A stretch of 8,499 bases of DNA. Origin: a virus. Its lineage: Duplodnaviria > Heunggongvirae > Uroviricota > Caudoviricetes. Below, in pieces: positions 253-8,499 of the stretch. The stretch lies in the IMG/VR virus record IMGVR_UViG_2579778606_000009. One strand, 5' to 3'. The notes under the pieces are model-generated. The model made no database searches, had not been told where the DNA came from, and saw only the letters and a program-made list of their open reading frames with translations. The position numbers and the translations under genes are program-made. How positions within the stretch are numbered: the stretch's first letter is position 1; each line of letters opens with the position of its first letter.

Positions 253-3200
253 ATGGGTAAAGGCAGCAGTAAGGGGCATACCCCGCGCGAAGCGAAGGAC
301 AACCTGAAGTCCACGCAGCTGCTGAGTGTGATCGATGCCATCAGCGAAGGGCCGGTTGAAGGTCCGGTGGATGGATTAAAAAGCGTGCTGCTGAACAGTA
401 CGCCGGTGCTGGACAGTGAGGGGAATACCAATATATCCGGCGTCACGGTGGTGTTCCGGGCCGGTGAGCAGGAGCAGACACCGCCGGAGGGATTTGAATC
501 CTCCGGCTCCGAGACGGTGCTCGGTACAGAAGTGAAATATGACACGCCGATAACCCGGACCATCACGTCGGCAAACATTGACCGTCTGCGTTTTACTTTC
601 GGCGTGCAGGCACTGGTGGAAACCACCTCAAAGGGGGACAGGAATCCATCGGAAGTCCGCCTGCTGGTTCAGATACAACGTAACGGTGGCTGGGTGACGG
701 AAAAAGACATCACCATTAAGGGTAAAACCACTTCACAGTATCTGGCCTCGGTTGTGGTGGATAACCTGCCGCCGCGCCCGTTTAATATCCGGATGCGCAG
801 GATGACGCCGGACAGCACCACAGACCAGCTGCAGAACAAAACGCTCTGGTCGTCATACACTGAAATCATCGATGTGAAACAGTGCTACCCGAACACGGCA
901 CTGGTCGGCGTGCAGGTGGACTCGGAACAGTTCGGCAGCCAGCAGGTGAGCCGTAATTATCATCTTCGCGGGCGCATTCTGCAGGTGCCATCGAACTATA
1001 ACCCGCAGACTCGGCAATACAGCGGTATCTGGGACGGAACGTTTAAGCCAGCATACAGCAATAACATGGCCTGGTGTCTGTGGGATATGCTGACCCATCC
1101 ACGCTACGGCATGGGGAAACGTCTTGGTGCGGCGGATGTGGACAAATGGGCGCTGTATGTCATCGGCCAGTACTGCGACCAGTCAGTGCCGGACGGCTTT
1201 GGCGGCACGGAGCCGCGCATCACCTGTAATGCGTACCTGACCACACAGCGCAAGGCGTGGGATGTGCTCAGTGATTTCTGTTCGGCGATGCGCTGTATGC
1301 TGGTATGGAACGGGCAGACGCTGACGTTCGTGCAGGACCGACCGTCGGATAAGGTGTGGACCTATAACCACAGTAATGTGGTGATGCCGGATGATGGCGC
1401 GCCGTTCCGCTACAGCTTCAGCGCCCTGAAGGACCGCCATAATGCCGTTGAGGTGAACTGGATTGACCCGGATAACGGCTGGGAGACGGCGACAGAGCTT
1501 GTTGAAGATACGCAGGCCATTCTCCGTTACGGTCGTAACGTCACGAAGATGGATGCCTTTGGCTGTACCAGCCGGGGGCAGGCGCACCGCGCCGGGCTGT
1601 GGCTGATTAAAACGGAACTGCTGGAAACGCAGACCGTGGACTTCAGCGTGGGTGCCGAAGGGCTTCGCCATGTACCGGGCGATGTCATTGAAATCTGTGA
1701 TGATGACTATGCCGGTATCAGCACCGGTGGTCGCGTGCTGGCGGTGAACAGCCAGACCCGGACGCTGACGCTCGACCGTGAAATCACGCTGCCATCCTCC
1801 GGTACCACGCTGATAAGCCTGGTTGACGGAAGTGGTAATCCGGTCAGCGTGGAGGTTCAGTCCGTCACCGACGGACTTAAGGTGAAAGTGAACCGGGTTC
1901 CTGACGGCGTTGCAGAATACAGTGTGTGGGGGCTGAAGCTGCCGACGCTGCGCCAGCGCCTGTTCCGCTGTGTGAGTATCCGTGAGAACGATGACGGCAC
2001 GTATGCCATCACTGCCGTGCAGCATGTACCGGAAAAAGAAGCCATCGTGGATAACGGGGCGCACTTTGACGGCGACCAGAGCGGCACGGTGAATGGTGTC
2101 ACGCCGCCAGCGGTGCAGCACCTGACCGCCGAAGTCACCGCAGACAGCGGGGAATATCAGGTGCTGGCGCGCTGGGACACGCCGAAGGTGGTGAAGGGCG
2201 TGAGCTTCCTGCTTCGCCTGACCGTGGCAGCGGATGACGGCAGTGAGCGGCTGGTCAGCACGGCCCGGACGACGGAAACCACATACCGCTTCACGCAACT
2301 GGCGCTGGGGCGGTACACGCTGACAGTCCGGGCGGTAAATGCGTGGGGACAGCAGGGCGATCCGGCGTCGGTATCGTTCCGGATTGCCGCACCGGTAGCA
2401 CCGTCGCGGATTGAGCTGACGCCGGGGTATTTTCAGATAACCGCCACGCCGCATCTTGCCGTTTATGACCCGACGGTACAGTTTGAGTTCTGGTTCTCGG
2501 AAAAGCGGATTACCGATATCAGGCAGGTTGAAACCACAGCCAGCTATCTTGGCACGGGGCTGTACTGGATAGCCGCCAGTATCAATATCAAACCGGGCCA
2601 TGATTATTATTTTTACGTTCGCAGTGTGAACACCGTTGGCAAATCGGCATTCGTGGAGGCTGTTGGTCAGCCGAGTGATGATGCATCCGGCTATCTGGAT
2701 TTTTTCAAAGGCGAGATAGGGAAAACCCATCTGGCTCAGGAGCTGTGGACGCAGATTGATAACGGTCAGCTTGCGCCTGACCTGGCTGAAATCAGGACGT
2801 CCATTACGGATGTCAGCAATGAAATCACGCAGACCGTCAATAAGAAACTGGAAGACCAGAGTGCAGCGATCCAGCAGATACAGAAGGTTCAGGTTGATAC
2901 AAATAATAACCTGAACAGCATGTGGGCAGTGAAGCTGCAGCAGATGCAGGACGGACGCCTTTATATTGCGGGTATCGGTGCCGGTATTGAGAACACCCCC
3001 GACGGCATGCAGAGTCAGGTGCTGCTGGCGGCGGACAGGATTGCGATGATTAATCCTGCGAATGGCAACACAAAGCCGATGTTTGTTGGTCAGGGCGATC
3101 AGATATTCATGAATGAAGTGTTCCTGAAATATCTGACGGCTCCCACCATTACCAGCGGCGGTAATCCTCCGGCATTTTCCCTGACACCGGACGGGCGACT

Positions 3201-3327
3201 GACGGCGAAAAATGCCGATATCAGCGGTAGCGTGAATGCGAACTCTGGGACGCTCAACAACGTCACGATTAACGATAACTGTCGCCGGAAAAACTGTCCG
3301 CGAACCAGGATGAAGGGTTGTCGTTAA
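253..3327 (+). CDS. J: Host specificity protein J (central tail fibre / tail tip), 1024-aa ORF that ends prematurely relative to lambda gpJ
   Basis: ATG at 253 preceded by ggag at 241-244. The translation [34 protein letters not shown]... is near-identical, from memory, to lambda gpJ across most of its length, including the fibronectin-like central region and ...[40 protein letters not shown].... The frame ends at TAA 3325-3327 after a non-homologous tail [16 protein letters not shown]. Confidence 0.9.
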
Positions 3328-3331
3328 AACA

Positions 3332-3727
3332 GTGGGCAAAGCTTTCCCCCGGGACTCCCGTGCACCGGAGCGGTGGCCATCAGGGACCATTACCGTCAGG
3401 GTTTATGACGATCAGCCGTTTGACCGGCAAATTGTTATTCCAGCGGTGGCTTTCAGCGGTGCCAGACATGAACGGGAGAATAGCGATACTTATTCGTCAT
3501 GCCGCCTGATAGTGAAGAAAAACGGGGCTGAAATTTATAACCGAACGGCTCTGGATAATACTCTGATTTACACGGGTGTTATTGATATGCCTGCAGGCAG
3601 TGGCGTAATGACACTGGAGTTTTCTGTATCAGCATGGTGGGTAAATGGCTGGTATCCCACAGCAAGTATCAGCGATTTGCTGGTTGTTGTGATGAAGAAA
3701 GCCACTGCAGGCATCACGATTAGCTGA
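3332..3727 (+). pseudogene. J: J C-terminal receptor-binding domain, out of frame with the main J ORF (frameshifted J 3' segment)
   Basis: Frame 2 reads (RVVV)[46 protein letters not shown]...DMPAGSGVMTLEFS...VVVMKKATAGITIS*, colinear with the lambda gpJ C-terminus (...AAFPRQRESSVDWPSGTRTVTVTDDHPFDRQIVVLP...DMPAGRGNV...VMVIKKQALGISVV). Homology in this frame begins around 3317; the ORF track assigns a GTG at 3332. A short bridging segment in frame 3 (3279-3320, ...[10 protein letters not shown]...) links the two, implying two single-base frame changes. Confidence 0.7.
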
Positions 3728-3794: not shown

Positions 3795-4394
3795 ATGCGT
3801 AAATTATGTGCTGTTATTCTGTCCACAGTAGTCTGGCTGGTCGCCGCTGGTACGCCAGCGAGCGCAGCAGAGCATCAGTCCACACTAAGCGCCGGGTATC
3901 TTCAGACCCATACTGATATGCCCGGCAACGATGACCTGAAGGGCATTAACGTGAAATACCGTTATGAATTTACGGACACGCTGGGGCTGGTGACGTCATT
4001 CAGTTATGCCATTGTAAAACATGAGCAAAAAACGCATTACAGCGATACCCGCTGGCATGAAGATTCAGTGCGTAACCGCTGGTTCAGCATGATGGCGGGG
4101 CCGTCTGTACGCGTGAATGAATGGTTCAGTGCTTATGCGATGGCAGGTGTGGCTTACAGCCGTGTTTCAACTTTTTCCGGGGATTATCTCCGCGTAACTG
4201 ACAGCAAGGGGAAAACGCACGATGTGCTGACCGGAAGTGATGACGGTCGCCACAGCAACACGTCTCTGGCGTGGGGGGCTGGCGTGCAGTTTAACCCGAC
4301 CGAATCCGTGGCCATTGATATTGCTTATGAAGGCTCCGGCAGTGGTGACTGGCGCACTGACGGTTTCATCGTGGGTGTCGGTTATAAATTCTGA
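3795..4394 (+). CDS. lom: Lom, Ail/Lom-family 8-stranded beta-barrel outer-membrane protein
   Basis: RBS gagagg (3784-3789) and ATG at 3795. N-terminal signal peptide MRKLCAVILSTVVWLVAAGTPASA|AE. The C-terminus ...VAIDIAYEGSGSGDWRTDGFIVGVGYKF* matches lambda Lom as I recall it and ends in the aromatic residue typical of OMPs. Position between J and stf is as in lambda. Confidence 0.9.
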   Translation: MRKLCAVILSTVVWLVAAGTPASAAEHQSTLSAGYLQTHTDMPGNDDLKGINVKYRYEFTDTLGLVTSFSYAIVKHEQKTHYSDTRWHEDSVRNRWFSMMAGPSVRVNEWFSAYAMAGVAYSRVSTFSGDYLRVTDSKGKTHDVLTGSDDGRHSNTSLAWGAGVQFNPTESVAIDIAYEGSGSGDWRTDGFIVGVGYKF

Positions 4395-4420: not shown

Positions 4421-4447
4421 AGCCCGCCGGTTCAGGCGGGCTTTTTT
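4421..4447 (+). terminator. Rho-independent terminator downstream of lom
   Basis: agcccgcc (4421-4428), loop ggttca, ggcgggct (4435-4442), followed by a T-run to 4447. Confidence 0.65.
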
Positions 4448-4480
4448 GTGGAGTGGATATAGCAATTAAAAATCTCAGGT

Positions 4481-6832
4481 GTGCTGAAAGATTGTGCGGG
4501 AAAACCAATACAGAACTGCACTATTCAACTGAAGGCAAAGCGTAACAGCACCACGGTACTGGTGAACACGGTGGCCTCTGAAAATCCGGATGAAGCCGGG
4601 CGTTACAGCATGGATGTTGAGCATGGCCAGTACAGCGTCATCCTGCTGGTTGAAGGTTTTCCGCCTTCACATGCCGGGACCATTACCGTCTATGAAGGCT
4701 CCAGACCAGGTACGCTGAATGATTTTCTCGGTGCCATGACGGAAGAGGATGTCATGCCGGAGGCATTGCGTCGTTTTGAGGCAATGGTGGAAGAAGTGGC
4801 ACGCAACGCCGAAGCCGCCTCTCAGAGCGCAGCGGCGGCAAAGAAATCCGAAACTGCAGCGGCATCATCGAAGAACGCGGCGAAAACCTCAGAAACGAAT
4901 GCAGCTAATAGTGCACAGGCGGCAGCGACCTCAAAGACTGCATCGGCAAACTCTGCGACAGCAGCCAAAAAATCAGAAACCAACGCGAAAAACAGTGAGA
5001 CAGCCGCAAAGACGAGCGAAACCAACGCAAAGTCCAGCCAGACGGCAGCGAAAACCAGCGAAACGAATGCCAAAGCCAGTGAAACTGCGGCAAAAAACAG
5101 CCAGGCTGCAGCAGCTGAAAGCGAGAGCGCGGCAGCCGGTTCTGCGACTTCAGCAGCTGGATCAGCAACTGCTGCGGCTAACAGCCAGAAAGCTGCGAAG
5201 ACGAGTGAAACTAACGCAAAGTCCAGCCAGACGGCAGCGAAGACCAGCGAAACGAATGCCAAAGCCAGTGAAACTGCGGCGAAAAGCAGTCAGGATGCAG
5301 CGGCCCAAAGCGAGAGTGCCGCAGCCAGTTCTGCAAGCGCGGCGGCTGCTTCTGCCACTGCATCAGCTAACAGTCAAAAAGCAGCAAAAACCAGTGAAAC
5401 CAACGCAAAGGTGAGCGAAACAGCGGCTGCGAACTCAGCGAAAGCATCGGCAGCAAGCCAGACGGCAGCTAAAGCAAGCGAAGATGCAGCCAGAGAGTAC
5501 GCAAGCCAGGCTGCGGAGCCGTATAAATATGTCTTACAACCGCTACCTGATGTGTGGATACCGTTTAACGATTCGCTGGATATGATTACGGGCTTTTCGC
5601 CATCATATAAAAAGATTGTTATTGGCGACGACGAAATAACAATGCCTGGCGACAAGGTTGTTAAGTTTAAACGCGCATCGAAAGCAACCTATATTAATAA
5701 ATCTGGTGTGCTTACAGAGGCTGCCATTGACGAGCCACGATTTGAACGTGATGGCCTGCTTATTGAGGGACAACGAACAAACTACATGCTCAATTCGGAA
5801 AACCCTGCCAGTTGGGGGCGATCGTCAAATATGGATGTTCCCGAAACCGGGACTGATAGTTTTGGTTTTACCTATGGAAAGTTTGTCTGTAACGATTCTC
5901 TGATTGGGCAAACGTCAGCCATTAATATGGCATCAATTGCTGCTACAAAGTCAGTTGATGTTTCAGGCGATAACAAGTACGTGACAACCTCATGTCGTTT
6001 TAAAACAGAACGACAGGTAAGGTTGCGTATCCGCTTTGATAAATATGACGGTAGTGCAACAACTTTTCTTGGTGATGCATATATTGATACACAAACGCTT
6101 GAAATTAATATGACAGGTGGCGCGGCCTCAAGGATTACAGCGAGAGTCAGAAAGGACGAAGCTACCGGATGGATTTTTGCAGAGGCAACAATCCTGGCAA
6201 TTGATGATGAGTTAAAAATAGGATCTCAGATACAGTATTCTCCTAAGCAGGGCGGAGCAACCGTATCTGGAGACTATATTTATCTGGCCACCCCTCAGGT
6301 TGAGGATGGTTCGTGTGCATCATCTTTTATTATCTCAGGAACGACGGCGGCTACCCGCGCAAGCGATATAGTTACAGTTCCAATTAATAATAATCTTTAT
6401 AATCTTCCTTTTACGGTTCTTTGTGAGGTACATAAGAACTGGTATAAAACGCCAAATGCAGCGCCGCGTGTTTTTGATACAGGCGGTCATCAAACCGGAG
6501 CGGCTATTATTCTTGGCTTCGGTCGTTCAACAGATTACGACGGATTTCCTTATTGCGATATTGGAGGAGCTAACAGACGGGTAAACGAAAACGCATCGCT
6601 TGAAAAAATGGTTATGGGGATGCGTGTAAAATCAGATCAGTCTACGTGCTCAGTAAGTAACGGGCGCATATCCAGCGAAACAAAGACTACGTGGTCCTAT
6701 ATTCAGAACTCTGCAACCATCCGTATTGGAGGCCAGACTACAGCAGGCTTACGTCATTTATTTGGTCATATCAGGAATTTCAGAATATGGCATAAAGCAT
6801 TAACAGACCAACAAATGGCTGAGGTTATTTAA
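4481..6832 (+). CDS. stf: Side tail fibre protein: lambda Stf-like N-terminal domain, Ala/Ser/Thr-rich repeat shaft, and a non-lambda distal domain with a concanavalin/LamG-like C-terminal motif
   Basis: 783-aa ORF. Residues 1-100 (..KDCAGKPIQNCTIQLKAKRNSTTVLVNTVASENPDEAGRYSMDVEHGQYSVILLVEGFPPSHAGTITVYEGSRPGTLNDFLGAMTEED...) match the lambda Stf N-terminus from memory. The authentic start is probably GTG 4453 (VDIAIK...) in another frame, joined by a single-base frameshift at the A5 run 4468-4472. The C-terminal 430 aa are unrelated to lambda Stf and end ...GLRHLFGHIRNFRIWHKALTDQQMAEVI*. Confidence 0.85.
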   Translation: MLKDCAGKPIQNCTIQLKAKRNSTTVLVNTVASENPDEAGRYSMDVEHGQYSVILLVEGFPPSHAGTITVYEGSRPGTLNDFLGAMTEEDVMPEALRRFEAMVEEVARNAEAASQSAAAAKKSETAAASSKNAAKTSETNAANSAQAAATSKTASANSATAAKKSETNAKNSETAAKTSETNAKSSQTAAKTSETNAKASETAAKNSQAAAAESESAAAGSATSAAGSATAAANSQKAAKTSETNAKSSQTAAKTSETNAKASETAAKSSQDAAAQSESAAASSASAAAASATASANSQKAAKTSETNAKVSETAAANSAKASAASQTAAKASEDAAREYASQAAEPYKYVLQPLPDVWIPFNDSLDMITGFSPSYKKIVIGDDEITMPGDKVVKFKRASKATYINKSGVLTEAAIDEPRFERDGLLIEGQRTNYMLNSENPASWGRSSNMDVPETGTDSFGFTYGKFVCNDSLIGQTSAINMASIAATKSVDVSGDNKYVTTSCRFKTERQVRLRIRFDKYDGSATTFLGDAYIDTQTLEINMTGGAASRITARVRKDEATGWIFAEATILAIDDELKIGSQIQYSPKQGGATVSGDYIYLATPQVEDGSCASSFIISGTTAATRASDIVTVPINNNLYNLPFTVLCEVHKNWYKTPNAAPRVFDTGGHQTGAAIILGFGRSTDYDGFPYCDIGGANRRVNENASLEKMVMGMRVKSDQSTCSVSNGRISSETKTTWSYIQNSATIRIGGQTTAGLRHLFGHIRNFRIWHKALTDQQMAEVI
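5008..5385 (+). repeat. Two tandem copies of a 189-bp (63-aa) unit inside the stf shaft, within a longer degenerate Ala/Ser/Thr/Lys repeat region (about 4806-5500)
   Basis: gacgagcgaaaccaacgcaaagtccagccagacggcagcgaaaaccagcgaaacgaatgccaaagccagtgaaactgcggc... at 5011 recurs with a few substitutions at 5200 (offset 189). At protein level KTSETNAKSSQTAAKTSETNAKASETAAK(N/S)SQ(A/D)AAA(E/Q)SESAAA(G/S)S... repeats, with shorter AAKTSETNAK-type sub-repeats nested inside. Confidence 0.8.
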
Positions 6833-7113
6833 TGAAAGATATTACGTTGAAATTTGCCGACAGGGCCGACTTTTCGGCCTTTATGGAGAGTATTGGCTAT
6901 TATGATGACGAGTCGATGCAGGATGATATTCTTATTGACGTGATAGGTAACGTGTACAAAGAAACCGGAGAACTGACTGAAGATGGCGAACCGGTATGTG
7001 TTAAGGAAGACGGATATTTTGTAAACGTGCGCATCATTAATGATTCGCAAATATCGTCATTATTCGATGAATACGTGGTTGCTGTTGAGCATCAACTTCG
7101 TGGCTGGATGTGA
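6832..7113 (+). CDS. Hypothetical small acidic protein (93 aa), translationally coupled to stf; possible fibre chaperone or adaptor
   Basis: ATG at 6832 overlaps the stf stop (TAATG) with gaggt at 6821-6825 upstream. It ends at TGA 7111-7113, 9 nt before the next gene. D/E-rich, no TM or signal sequence; I do not recognise a family. It occupies the position where lambda has tfa but does not resemble Tfa. Confidence 0.55.
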   Translation: MKDITLKFADRADFSAFMESIGYYDDESMQDDILIDVIGNVYKETGELTEDGEPVCVKEDGYFVNVRIINDSQISSLFDEYVVAVEHQLRGWM

Positions 7114-7122
7114 GGAAGAAAA

Positions 7123-8163
7123 ATGGCTACATCGACAGTAATTCCTGATGACATCAAAACGCTAAAATCCGACGTTAGCAAATTAAAAAACGATCAAGGA
7201 AGCTACGCAACAAAATTATATGTAGACAGCAAAGATGAAATCGTTGGTGACTGGTCTGCTTCATGGTATCAGCAGGTATTGCCAACTAGCGGAGCTATAT
7301 TTGGGAGAAAACTCCGCTCAACTCACAGGACGGCAGGTGTTGAGGATGCGTATTGCGAACTATACCTCAAAAAATGGATAGACAGTCCAGGTAACGCAAT
7401 GGCGCGCCTTAACCTGAACGATAACGGGACAAACATTTGCTGGGACTTTACCAACCTTTATGGCGGTACGATGATTTTTCCCGGTGACAGCGGATACCTC
7501 AAAATGGGTAACTGCCTTATGTCATACAGCAAGCGTGGAAGTAACGCGCTTATTAAATTTGATTACACCGACACATTACAGATCAAATATGCCAATCATG
7601 GGTCAACCATGACATTAAACACACAGGGAACCGCTTATGCTGGTGTTACTGCTCAATTGTGGGGCAACTCCAGCCGTCCTGTTGTTTATGAAGTCGGTGT
7701 TGATGGTGGCGCTTATATGTTCTATGCGCAGAAAAATACCGATAACACCTATATGTTAAGCGTTAATGGTGCATGTCATGCCACCGCATTTAACCAGCAT
7801 TCCGACCGGGATCTGAAAGACAACATTCAGGTGATCGATAATGCAACCGACCGCATCCGTAAAATGAACGGCTATACATACACGCTTAAAGAAAACGGTA
7901 TGCCCTATGCTGGTGTCATTGCACAGGAAGCTCTGGAAGCAATCCCAGAAGTTGTAGGTTCCGCAATGAAATATCAGGACGGTGCAAGCGGATCGGAAGG
8001 TGAAGAAGGTGAACGTTATTACACAGTAGATTATTCTGGTGTTACTGGCTTGCTTGTTCAGGTAGCCAGAGAGTCAGACGACAGAATAACAGCACTGGAA
8101 GAAGAAAATGCAGAATTAAAACAAAGATTATCTGCAATTGAGGCGACGCTTGCGTCTAAATAA
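7123..8163 (+). CDS. Tail-fibre/tailspike-like protein (346 aa) with a C-terminal Peptidase_S74-type intramolecular chaperone domain
   Basis: RBS gaggaag (7112-7118) and ATG at 7123. The C-terminal about 120 aa read S227-DRDLK232-DNIQVIDNATDRIRKMNGYTYTLKENGMPYAGVIAQEALEAIPEVVG...ITALEEENAELKQRLSAIE. This matches the S-D-x-x-L-K Ser/Lys dyad motif, the GVIAQE...P.V core and the terminal coiled coil of endosialidase and T5 pb1-type self-cleaving chaperone domains. The preceding region is beta-rich (Gly/Asn/Thr/Tyr). Confidence 0.75.
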   Translation: MATSTVIPDDIKTLKSDVSKLKNDQGSYATKLYVDSKDEIVGDWSASWYQQVLPTSGAIFGRKLRSTHRTAGVEDAYCELYLKKWIDSPGNAMARLNLNDNGTNICWDFTNLYGGTMIFPGDSGYLKMGNCLMSYSKRGSNALIKFDYTDTLQIKYANHGSTMTLNTQGTAYAGVTAQLWGNSSRPVVYEVGVDGGAYMFYAQKNTDNTYMLSVNGACHATAFNQHSDRDLKDNIQVIDNATDRIRKMNGYTYTLKENGMPYAGVIAQEALEAIPEVVGSAMKYQDGASGSEGEEGERYYTVDYSGVTGLLVQVARESDDRITALEEENAELKQRLSAIEATLASK

Positions 8164-8169
8164 TATTAA

Positions 8170-8192
8170 GGGGCCGAGCGCCCCGTTTTATT
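8170..8192 (+). terminator. Rho-independent terminator after the 346-aa gene
   Basis: ggggc (8170-8174), loop cgagc, gcccc (8180-8184), followed by gttttatt. Confidence 0.55.
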
Positions 8193-8205: not shown

Positions 8206-8499
8206 ATGGATATAACACCTTTCCTTCATGCACTTTGTGCTGTGGCTGCGCAGGTACTGGTTGGTCTTTTTACCGGAAACTGGGCTTACGGGGCGATAGC
8301 CGGTTGTACGTTCTTCATTGCTCGTGAACATACCCAGGCAGAATATCGCTGGATTGAAATGTTCGGGCATGGCAAGCGTATGAATATGCCGTGGTGGGGT
8401 GGTTTTGATCCGCGCGTGTGGGATGTGGCAAGCCTGATGGATTTTTCTGTGCCGGTGGTGGCTTGTCTGCTGGTCTGGCTGTTGGTTAATCGTGGGTGA
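8206..8499 (+). CDS. Small hydrophobic membrane protein of unknown function (about 97 aa, three predicted helices); candidate moron
   Basis: ATG at 8206 with agga (8197-8200) 5 nt upstream; alternative starts are ATG 8200 and the track's TTG 8191. Stop is TGA 8497-8499. Three hydrophobic stretches: ITPFLHALCAVAAQVLVGLF, AYGAIAGCTFFIA, FSVPVVACLLVWLLV. No lipobox, and no charged C-terminal tail of the kind holins carry. Family not recognised. Confidence 0.6.
   Translation: MDITPFLHALCAVAAQVLVGLFTGNWAYGAIAGCTFFIAREHTQAEYRWIEMFGHGKRMNMPWWGGFDPRVWDVASLMDFSVPVVACLLVWLLVNRG

Follow-up and report, generated by a model that had tools for sequence, protein, structure and literature searches.

A putative mobile three-component tail-fibre cassette in the side-fibre region of a lambdoid prophage

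Whether a phage can get past a given O-antigen or capsule type depends on its side and lateral tail fibres, which are therefore the main target of host-range engineering, for example in lambda-based delivery particles and therapeutic phages. According to the BASEL papers, the lateral fibres of small siphoviruses may comprise one, two or more proteins. In the Tequintavirus IrisVonRoten (Bas32), gp22 is a proximal fibre whose C-terminal domain is galectin-like, and gp24 is a distal fibre with a T5-like tip and a chaperone domain that is attached to the proximal fibre in an AlphaFold-Multimer model of gp22 and gp24 (10.1101/2024.09.12.612763). The genetics of phage DT57C likewise shows that a second fibre bearing the Peptidase_S74 (S74) chaperone domain can attach through the first (PMC4728585). 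In this work we analysed an 8,499-nucleotide (nt) stretch of a Caudoviricetes virus (IMG/VR record IMGVR_UViG_2579778606_000009), referred to below as the window, which is the right end of a lambdoid prophage's tail module. A stf-like side-fibre gene (4481-6832, + strand) is followed there, in the slot occupied in lambda by the tail fibre assembly gene tfa, by two open reading frames (ORFs), ORF93 (6832-7113, +) and ORF346 (7123-8163, +), which encode proteins of 93 and 346 amino acids (aa).

We consider it reasonably probable that the genes downstream of stf are the rest of a mobile three-component side or lateral tail-fibre cassette. A preliminary description of this DNA had treated ORF93 and ORF346 as a two-gene module replacing tfa. 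The sequence comparisons instead delineate, with high confidence, a putative cassette of three parts, namely Stf residues ~352-783 (5534-6832, +), ORF93 and ORF346, because the mobile unit begins within stf at residue ~352. The two-gene grouping is further contradicted by the association of ORF93 with the lectin-type end of Stf and by the presence in ORF346 of a chaperone domain of its own. The boundary is defined by comparison with the virulent Nonagvirus vB_EcoS_ESCO3, which is 92-98% identical to the window across the C-terminal part of Stf, ORF93 and most of ORF346, the similarity beginning sharply at Stf residue ~352 (QPLPDVWIPFNDSLDMITG). Base composition changes along the same segments: the guanine plus cytosine (GC) content is 55% in Stf 1-351, 43.3%, 41.8% and 44.2% in the three successive cassette parts and 51% in the next gene, with flanking values of 51-56% overall.

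The cassette is widely distributed and its parts are exchanged. At least 80% of a 1.8-kb query is held by 518 of the 5,426 complete E. coli genomes, the isolated phages Tritos, 2G7b, HannyBb and PhiR63_1 carry the module at 97% identity, and the trio is also found within the lateral-fibre loci of T1-like, T5-like and Nonagvirus genomes. In a set of 80 prophage loci from E. coli with an essentially identical ORF93 allele, we observed at least four alleles of the Stf lectin domain (about 93%, 48%, 40% and 32% identity), combined with two types of third gene, the 346-aa fibre and a fibre of ~234 aa that carries S74 at residues 116-172 (Pfam scan). In PhiR49_1 and PhiR47_1, recombination breakpoints lie on either side of ORF93. 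Since Stf and third-gene alleles vary around one ORF93 and the breakpoints flank it, these data indicate that ORF93 and its short conserved flanks stay constant as a joint while two receptor-binding modules are shuffled around it. Separately, fibre sequence of rV5-like or T5-like coliphage origin occurs in records labelled 'Campylobacter phage' (MG065666, MG065676, MG065653) and 'Listeria phage LM 4-14-1' (OR848352, with a fibre end 85% identical to that of the window); these records are probably contaminated or mislabelled.

The Stf protein combines a lambda-type anchor with a different kind of end. Residues 1-351 (4481-5533, +), outside the mobile cassette, comprise the phage-specific tail anchor and a shaft of Ala/Ser/Thr-rich repeats. 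This N-terminal part is 57% identical to lambda orf-401, matches the lambda Stf segment in the tail structure 9e7m (E=1.4e-43) and carries the Pfam domain phage_tail_N at residues 2-124 (E=8.8e-61), the match beginning at profile position 9. The cassette part forms the predicted globular receptor-binding end. It contains the NCBIfam domain GTA_spike_fiber at residues 427-627 (about 5759-6361), within a region (~394-635) homologous to the head-spike fibre Rcc01080 of the Rhodobacter capsulatus gene transfer agent, RcGTA (PDB 6TB9; profile search, E=7e-16). The extreme end resembles the ConA/LamG-like family Laminin_G_3, which is matched by 12 of 13 homologues below the gathering score (best E=2e-5); for the window Stf the match scores 18.6 bits against a cut-off of 27.6 and covers only the last ~50 profile residues. 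The C-terminal motif IRIGGQTxxGxRHLFGHIRNFRIWHKALTD is conserved in all 13 loci. The equivalent end domain of IrisVonRoten gp22 is galectin-like by structure prediction and may itself bind a receptor (10.1101/2024.09.12.612763).

The absence of a Tfa-like protein, as proposed in the preliminary description, was supported by all searches: Caudo_TAP (Pfam) matches none of the main ORFs of the window, tblastn of lambda Tfa against all six window frames returned only 16-bit noise, and the C-terminus of lambda Stf (orf-314) has no match in the window. As judged from its domains, the end of Stf is not of the Tfa-served tip type; Tfa would not be needed because this type of Stf ends in two globular domains of carbohydrate-binding type and not in a Tfa-dependent tip.

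Both downstream ORFs are, on comparative grounds, real genes and not chance ORFs, because they have full-length PHROG matches and their lengths are constant across 35-98% identity in several phage families. ORF93 residues 1-93 match phrog_1361 (function unknown; profile 1-92 of 92, E=2.6e-46), and ORF346 residues 1-346 match phrog_4563 ('tail fiber protein'; profile 1-346 of 346, E=2.6e-220). The tight coupling noted previously was confirmed: in the TAATG at 6830-6834 the stf stop codon TAA (6830-6832) overlaps the ORF93 start codon ATG (6832-6834) by 1 nt, and a 9-nt gap (7114-7122) separates the ORF93 stop from the ORF346 ATG. Shine-Dalgarno-like sequences, GAGG and GAGGA, are found 5' of ORF93 and ORF346, respectively. 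The three genes share one terminator-bounded operon. Its upstream boundary is a terminator-like hairpin 3' of lom (4421-4442, +; a stem of 8 base pairs, 7 of them G-C, then TTTTTT), and a second hairpin, GGGGCCGAGCGCCCC then GTTTTATT (8170-8184, +), marks the downstream limit of both the operon and the low-GC cassette.

The ORF93 product is acidic (isoelectric point 4.05; 21 Asp+Glu versus 7 Lys+Arg) and has no Pfam or NCBIfam match at E<=0.1, in agreement with its earlier description as an acidic protein of no assignable family. It is predicted to be a small alpha/beta protein (monomer model with a predicted local distance difference test score, pLDDT, of 86.8). By tblastn, ORF93 homologues were found in 185 phage records and the lectin-type fibre end in 205, with a nearly identical organism breakdown of the two sets, and in the records listed by both searches ORF93 starts where the fibre sequence ends. 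We retrieved 16 diverse loci from lambdoids (phage 21 among them), Drexlerviridae, Dhillonvirus, Nonagvirus, T5-like phages and rV5-like myoviruses, and in all of them the small gene and the stop codon of a lectin-ended fibre gene overlap; the same order, with ORF93 directly after such a gene, holds in 54 of 56 further viral-contig loci. Even for the three most distant placeable homologues (L154-L156), which have large loop insertions and keep only few motifs, the upstream gene ends in a lectin-type C-terminus, whereas downstream there is either an unrelated gene or none. A third gene is not required: phage 21, Lambda_2E9 and ev243 pass directly from the ORF93 homologue to a small membrane-protein gene, as do 45 of the 46 evaluable phage-21-type loci, a result that also speaks against a two-gene replacement of tfa. 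These observations identify ORF93, with high confidence in the genetic linkage, as the probable constant partner of the lectin-type C-terminal end of Stf and not of ORF346.

The ORF93 family is small: once artefacts are removed, clustering at 50% leaves ~80 genuine representatives from a set of 1.84 billion proteins. Two sets of candidates were rejected in the course of this survey. Large proteins (395-1,838 aa) with three to seven ORF93-like stretches proved to be summed repeat noise at ~2-13 bits per stretch, and in the six that were scanned the stretches fall in PKD, TPR or other repeat arrays. Natural fusions of the Rosetta-stone type were not found either, the extended family members being frameshift or assembly artefacts or carriers of loop insertions.

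ORF346 was identified with high confidence as a probable self-chaperoned S74 short fibre that is optional in the cassette. Residues 227-278 match Peptidase_S74 (PF13884; profile 1-57 of 58; E=4.7e-14, with a score of 52.8 bits where the cut-off is 22) and lie within the C-terminal region for which this family had been expected from inspection. The sequence SDRDLK at 227-232 corresponds to the S74 cleavage-site motif S-D-R-x-x-K, whose Ser/Lys pair is the catalytic dyad in endoNF and T5 pb1 (PMC4728585). The dyad residues are Ser227 (7801-7803) and Lys232 (7816-7818), and each of S227, D228, R229, D230, L231 and K232 is at least 90% conserved among 61 homologues. The body of the protein (residues 58-214) is predicted to be beta-rich, and a long C-terminal helix is predicted at residues 304-345, consistent with the beta-rich protein ending in an intramolecular chaperone that had been recognised by eye. 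By analogy with other S74 proteins, the domain should drive trimer folding and release itself at Ser227, with predicted products of 24.9 kDa per chain for the mature short fibre (residues 1-226; 7123-7800, +) and 13.2 kDa for the chaperone and auto-processing domain (residues 227-346; 7801-8160, +).

The mature part resembles fibre segments. The best PDB sequence match of ORF346 is the chaperone region of S16 gp37 (6f45, E=8e-4), residues 157-219 weakly match T4 gp34, and the distal part (residues 92/132-343) matches phrog_6578 at positions 988-1201 and phrog_5668 at positions 1299-1566. Residues ~132-226 constitute a variable distal tip that also terminates fibres of 1,200-1,570 aa from these two families. 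A fold search with the monomer model gave no match at E<=0.001 and only weak T4 gp34-like ones, the model being poor. A second receptor-binding protein alongside Stf, as suggested in the preliminary description, is therefore the most likely identity of this fibre-type protein with its own chaperone. A capsule or O-antigen depolymerase, which had been offered there as an alternative, was considered and rejected: Pfam, NCBIfam and PDB searches revealed no beta-helix lyase or hydrolase, sialidase or esterase domain upstream of S74, and the absence of an enzyme domain together with the short mature part (~226 aa), matched by distal fibre segments in PHROG, makes this role unlikely.

The N-terminus of ORF346 indicates where the short fibre might be attached. 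Residues 1-15 (7123-7167, +) carry the motif MxTxTxIPxDIxxLK, a putative docking peptide, followed by a helix predicted at residues 11-26. Otherwise differing third genes, with products of 221-586 aa, share this motif across lambdoid, T1-like, T5-like, Nonagvirus and Dhillonvirus phages, and the gene bearing it lies directly 3' of the ORF93 homologue in every retrieved locus and in every record listing both positions. Longer S74 fibres found in other genomic contexts share the C-terminal part and have unrelated N-termini. The anchor of the first fibre varies among these phages: phage_tail_N is present in lambdoids and Nonagvirus, T5-like, T1-like and Dhillonvirus fibres have no match to it, and T5-like phages have LtfC upstream of the first fibre. 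Because the N-terminal motif stays constant while the first-fibre anchors change, the docking site of ORF346 would lie inside the cassette, on the Stf end and/or ORF93, a placement in which we have moderate confidence.

The same observations bear on the alternative that ORF346 is an independent short fibre attached directly to the tail tip or baseplate, and not to Stf or ORF93. Some published fibres with a T5-like tip and a chaperone domain do have a baseplate anchor of their own, for example ManiWeber gp114. However, a Pfam scan of ORF346 revealed no recognisable anchor domain, only the ~15-aa motif and a short helix, and one motif serves phages whose first fibres are anchored differently. 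Its constant position after an ORF93 homologue and the transfer of the cassette as a unit between a lambdoid prophage and a Nonagvirus also disagree with direct attachment, which we regard as distinctly unlikely.

Two further third genes deserve comment as to annotation. In KarlJaspers (L004, 5270-5947) the gene is labelled 'putative lateral tail fiber chaperone' and in ESCO3 (L002, 6424-7479) 'endosialidase chaperone', apparently because the products were named after their S74 domain; judging from the common N-terminal motif, both are mislabelled short fibres. In KarlJaspers the motif begins at MATVTNIPADITALK, which probably puts the annotated start 12 nt too far upstream. In the Dhillonvirus KarlBarth (L013, 4270-5149), the third slot holds a 98-aa motif-bearing protein and a 196-aa Phage_tail_C_2 protein without S74, which may mean either that the docking motif can be combined with a distal domain lacking S74 or that the gene is split.

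The role of ORF93 can be approached by comparison with the known fibre accessory proteins. It is not a diverged Tfa, a possibility left open by the preliminary description: hhalign of a 92-sequence ORF93 profile against lambda Tfa gave a probability of 0.09%, and the predicted fold has no similarity to a solved fibre chaperone such as Mu Tfa (5YVQ). Its placement directly after, and coupled to, a fibre gene reproduces the lambda orf-314/orf-194 (tfa) geometry, and this supports a protein that may work like a Tfa, not membership in the Tfa family. Tentatively, ORF93 could represent a third class of fibre accessory protein beside Tfa and S74, one that would be needed for assembling or capping lectin-ended fibres and that, remaining attached there, would provide a universal socket for interchangeable short S74 fibres with the MxTxTxIPxDIxxLK motif. 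If this were true, a natural plug-and-play system of branched fibres would exist in at least five enterobacterial phage families.

Alternatively, ORF93 could be a connector with a purely structural task: like T4 gp35/gp36, it would act as a knee or adaptor joining the ORF346 trimer to the Stf trimer and would have no role in Stf assembly. Its position between two fibre genes agrees with this, as does the finding that each of the 78 evaluable loci with an ORF93 allele of the window type has a motif-bearing third gene. At the very C-terminus, the sequence L-R-x-W-x is kept in siphovirus members and distant homologues and yet has low confidence in the monomer model, a pattern typical of a partner-binding peptide and expected of a connector; the rV5-like homologues, which lack a motif-bearing third gene, differ in the C-terminal part. 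On the other hand, the phage-21-type loci described above, ev243 and the distant homologue L155 keep an intact ORF93 homologue, including R-x-W, without an adjoining third fibre, and a search of the rest of those phage records at E<=10 gave no gene with the motif. Two of the lineages lacking the third gene differ by ~40% in ORF93, which argues that ORF93 is maintained without it. We thus find a connector function alone rather doubtful, and ORF93 could be either the adaptor or the chaperone that had been suggested at the outset.

Taken together, these data suggest the following scheme. The Stf end, in which an RcGTA head-spike-fibre-like domain is followed by a ConA/LamG-like domain, would by homology be independent of Tfa. 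ORF93, unrelated to Tfa and co-translated from its overlapping start, would be the dedicated small partner of this lectin-type end, presumably as an assembly or capping subunit that may remain bound as part of the joint. ORF346 would add an optional short trimeric fibre: as in other members of its family, S74 would fold the trimer and cut at Ser227, leaving ~25 kDa per chain, and the N-terminal peptide would dock it to the conserved portion of the cassette, on the Stf end, on ORF93 or on both. The outcome would be a bipartite or branched fibre with two independent receptor-binding specificities, and the conserved joint formed by the Stf end, ORF93 and the N-terminus of the third gene would allow the two variable modules to be swapped independently by recombination.

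Several points weigh against this scheme. ConA/LamG-like domains usually fold unaided, which weakens the chaperone reading of ORF93. The contacts between Stf, ORF93 and ORF346 are predicted from sequence and analogy, and the role of ORF93 is deduced from its linkage; our confidence in that role is low, and the protein could be a transient chaperone or a virion component. Across 12 loci, ORF93 identity does not co-vary with that of the Stf lectin domain (Spearman 0.03) or the third-gene N-terminus (0.21), so no allele-specific co-evolution supports an ORF93 interface; the value of 0.49 for the start of the globular region is inseparable from linkage. The monomer model of ORF346 is poor (pLDDT 62.7), as expected for an obligate trimer. 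The published IrisVonRoten text is silent on the 92-aa gp23 (10.1101/2024.09.12.612763). Finally, the cassette is probably not used in the window copy, given the frameshift in J and the missing start of stf.

These lesions were defined by comparison with intact relatives. Relative to the intact gpJ of E. coli 7/2, the J gene (253-3727) has lost 4 nt after about 3284 and 1 nt after about 3316, and the resulting frameshift and premature stop split it into 253-3327 and 3332-3727, the second piece holding the Ig_GpJ_C receptor-binding domain. At the start of stf (about 4459-4467), ATG has become ATA and 2 nt are deleted (GATATAGCAAT--TAAAAATC versus GATATGGCAGCAGTAAAAATC in intact relatives); the remaining ORF is GTG-initiated, lacks the first 8 residues and has no obvious ribosome-binding site. 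The frameshift in J and the loss of the stf start codon mean that the prophage is probably defective, unless both lesions are sequencing errors, and the biology of the cassette is therefore deduced from intact relatives. ORF93 and ORF346 are intact in the window. In the locus of E. coli 7/2 (L003, NZ_CP023820, 6758-9133), a relative that is intact in other respects, RefSeq splits stf into two, with a pseudogene fragment for the N-terminus and a separate 'phage head spike fiber domain-containing protein'. This points to a frameshift within the repeat shaft or to a break in the annotation there; the stf shaft repeats may be a hotspot for such events.

The degraded state of this prophage is one of the observations that would fit a non-virion role of ORF93 and/or ORF346, either as morons acting at the host surface, as had been considered earlier for ORF346, or as decaying fragments of an older, longer S74-type Stf left after recombination. 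Long fibres that join an Stf N-terminus to an ORF346-like C-terminus do exist (phrog_6578, 1210 aa), E. coli genomes commonly contain truncated ORF346 variants of 254 aa as well as shorter fragments, and a membrane-protein gene of unknown function follows the cassette. Nevertheless, full-length syntenic copies are found in the plaque-forming phages Tritos, 2G7b, HannyBb, PhiR63_1, ESCO3 and JenP1. Each gene has its own Shine-Dalgarno sequence and a constant length, the N-terminal motif and the S74 dyad are preserved, and neither protein matched a secretion- or membrane-associated family in Pfam or NCBIfam. A moron is unlikely because the trio occurs inside the lateral-fibre loci of virulent-group phages (T1-like, T5-like, Nonagvirus) and forms one terminator-bounded operon with stf, and we regard the non-virion explanation as a whole as very improbable.

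The remaining features of the window lie outside the cassette. Gene order is J, lom (3795-4394), the stf-like gene, ORF93, ORF346 and a small membrane-protein gene (8206-8499; 97 aa, phrog_1443, function unknown). The latter trails lambdoid fibre genes with or without a third gene (phage 21, Lambda_2E9, ev243, Tritos and 45 phage-21-type loci) and is outside the cassette in non-lambdoid phages. The annotators of phage 21 predict a signal sequence and two transmembrane segments in a protein of this type, which may be encoded by a moron or superinfection-exclusion gene. Three long alternative-frame or antisense ORFs, 4749-5414 (+), 4822-5262 (-) and 1183-3390 (-), encoding 221, 146 and 735 aa, overlap the stf shaft and J; with their biased low-complexity composition they look like by-products of repeats and high GC, not genes. 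In Tritos (L001, 11028-11618), a gene for a PinR-type site-specific invertase is located ~230 base pairs 3' of the fibre cluster and the membrane-protein gene, and no invertible fibre segment is apparent in the annotated Tritos region.

The main interest of the locus lies in a widespread uncharacterised accessory protein and in its implications for fibre engineering. A very common lambdoid fibre type appears to work without Tfa, and its two receptor-binding modules appear to be exchanged independently around a conserved joint. A function-unknown protein of ~92 aa accompanies the lectin-ended fibre type in every examined locus of six phage groups, and the transplantation of such fibres will probably require carrying a small gene of the ORF93 type. 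The function of ORF93 would fill a gap in our understanding of how fibre ends that are neither Tfa- nor S74-served are assembled. In addition, the database labels 'endosialidase chaperone' and 'putative lateral tail fiber chaperone' can be corrected to short fibres.

Among the known systems, the gp22-gp23-gp24 genes of IrisVonRoten are similar to the window trio in several respects. The order of the three genes is identical, with an overlapping start of the small gene; the end of gp22 is 66% identical to the window Stf over the last 250 aa, the 92-aa gp23 is 40% identical to ORF93, and gp24 begins with the common motif (MVTKTVIPTDITKLK) and ends in Peptidase_S74. The window trio thus has the homologous gene order and an anchorless distal protein whose N-terminus is constant across tail types. 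In contrast, gp24 has 574 aa, a T shape and two receptor-binding domains, whereas ORF346 has 346 aa and one such domain, and IrisVonRoten is virulent, with a first fibre anchored via the T5-type LtfC collar and not via a lambda Stf N-terminal domain.

LtfA and LtfB from DT57C and DT571/2 are likewise encoded by adjacent fibre genes, the second protein being anchorless, attached via the first and S74-bearing; they form L-shaped branched fibres in which both proteins bind O-antigens, and the two genes recombine readily (PMC4728585; PMC10713586). The differences are that LtfA and LtfB both end in S74, whereas the window Stf has a lectin-type end without it, and that the branch point is in the middle of LtfA (homologous to phiEco32 gp14/gp15), with no small intervening gene described. 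The lambda Stf and Tfa pair, which is of a kind with the fibre and chaperone pairs of Mu, P2 and T4 gp37/gp38 type, shares the N-terminal anchor of Stf and the coupling of a small gene to the end of stf by a 1-nt overlap. However, ORF93 is unlike Tfa in sequence, profile and fold, and the C-terminal half of the window Stf is unrelated to that of lambda and is followed by a third fibre gene. ORF346 shares with the K1F endosialidase, T5 pb1 and S16 gp37 an S74 domain, whose Ser-x4-Lys dyad lies at the cleavage position, and a helical region at the C-terminus, although it is much shorter (mature part ~226 aa) and has neither an enzymatic domain nor a virion anchor of its own. In RcGTA the homologous domain of Rcc01080 (6TB9) belongs to a head spike; in the window it is part of the end of a side tail fibre, and an additional lectin-type domain and then the ORF93 gene come after it.

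An architecture of this kind has therefore been described before, and annotations of the genes exist ('tail fiber domain-containing protein' and 'hypothetical protein'). The pair is indeed annotated in hundreds of genomes, as the preliminary description had allowed, but its experimental characterisation was not found, for either ORF93 or ORF346, in the literature searched, which included work on phage Tritos, virion proteomics of Nonagvirus phages and follow-up work on the IrisVonRoten fibres. Relative to these systems and to the searchable literature, the new elements are the strict link between ORF93 and the lectin-ended fibre, its independence from the third gene, the docking motif, and the boundaries of the cassette.

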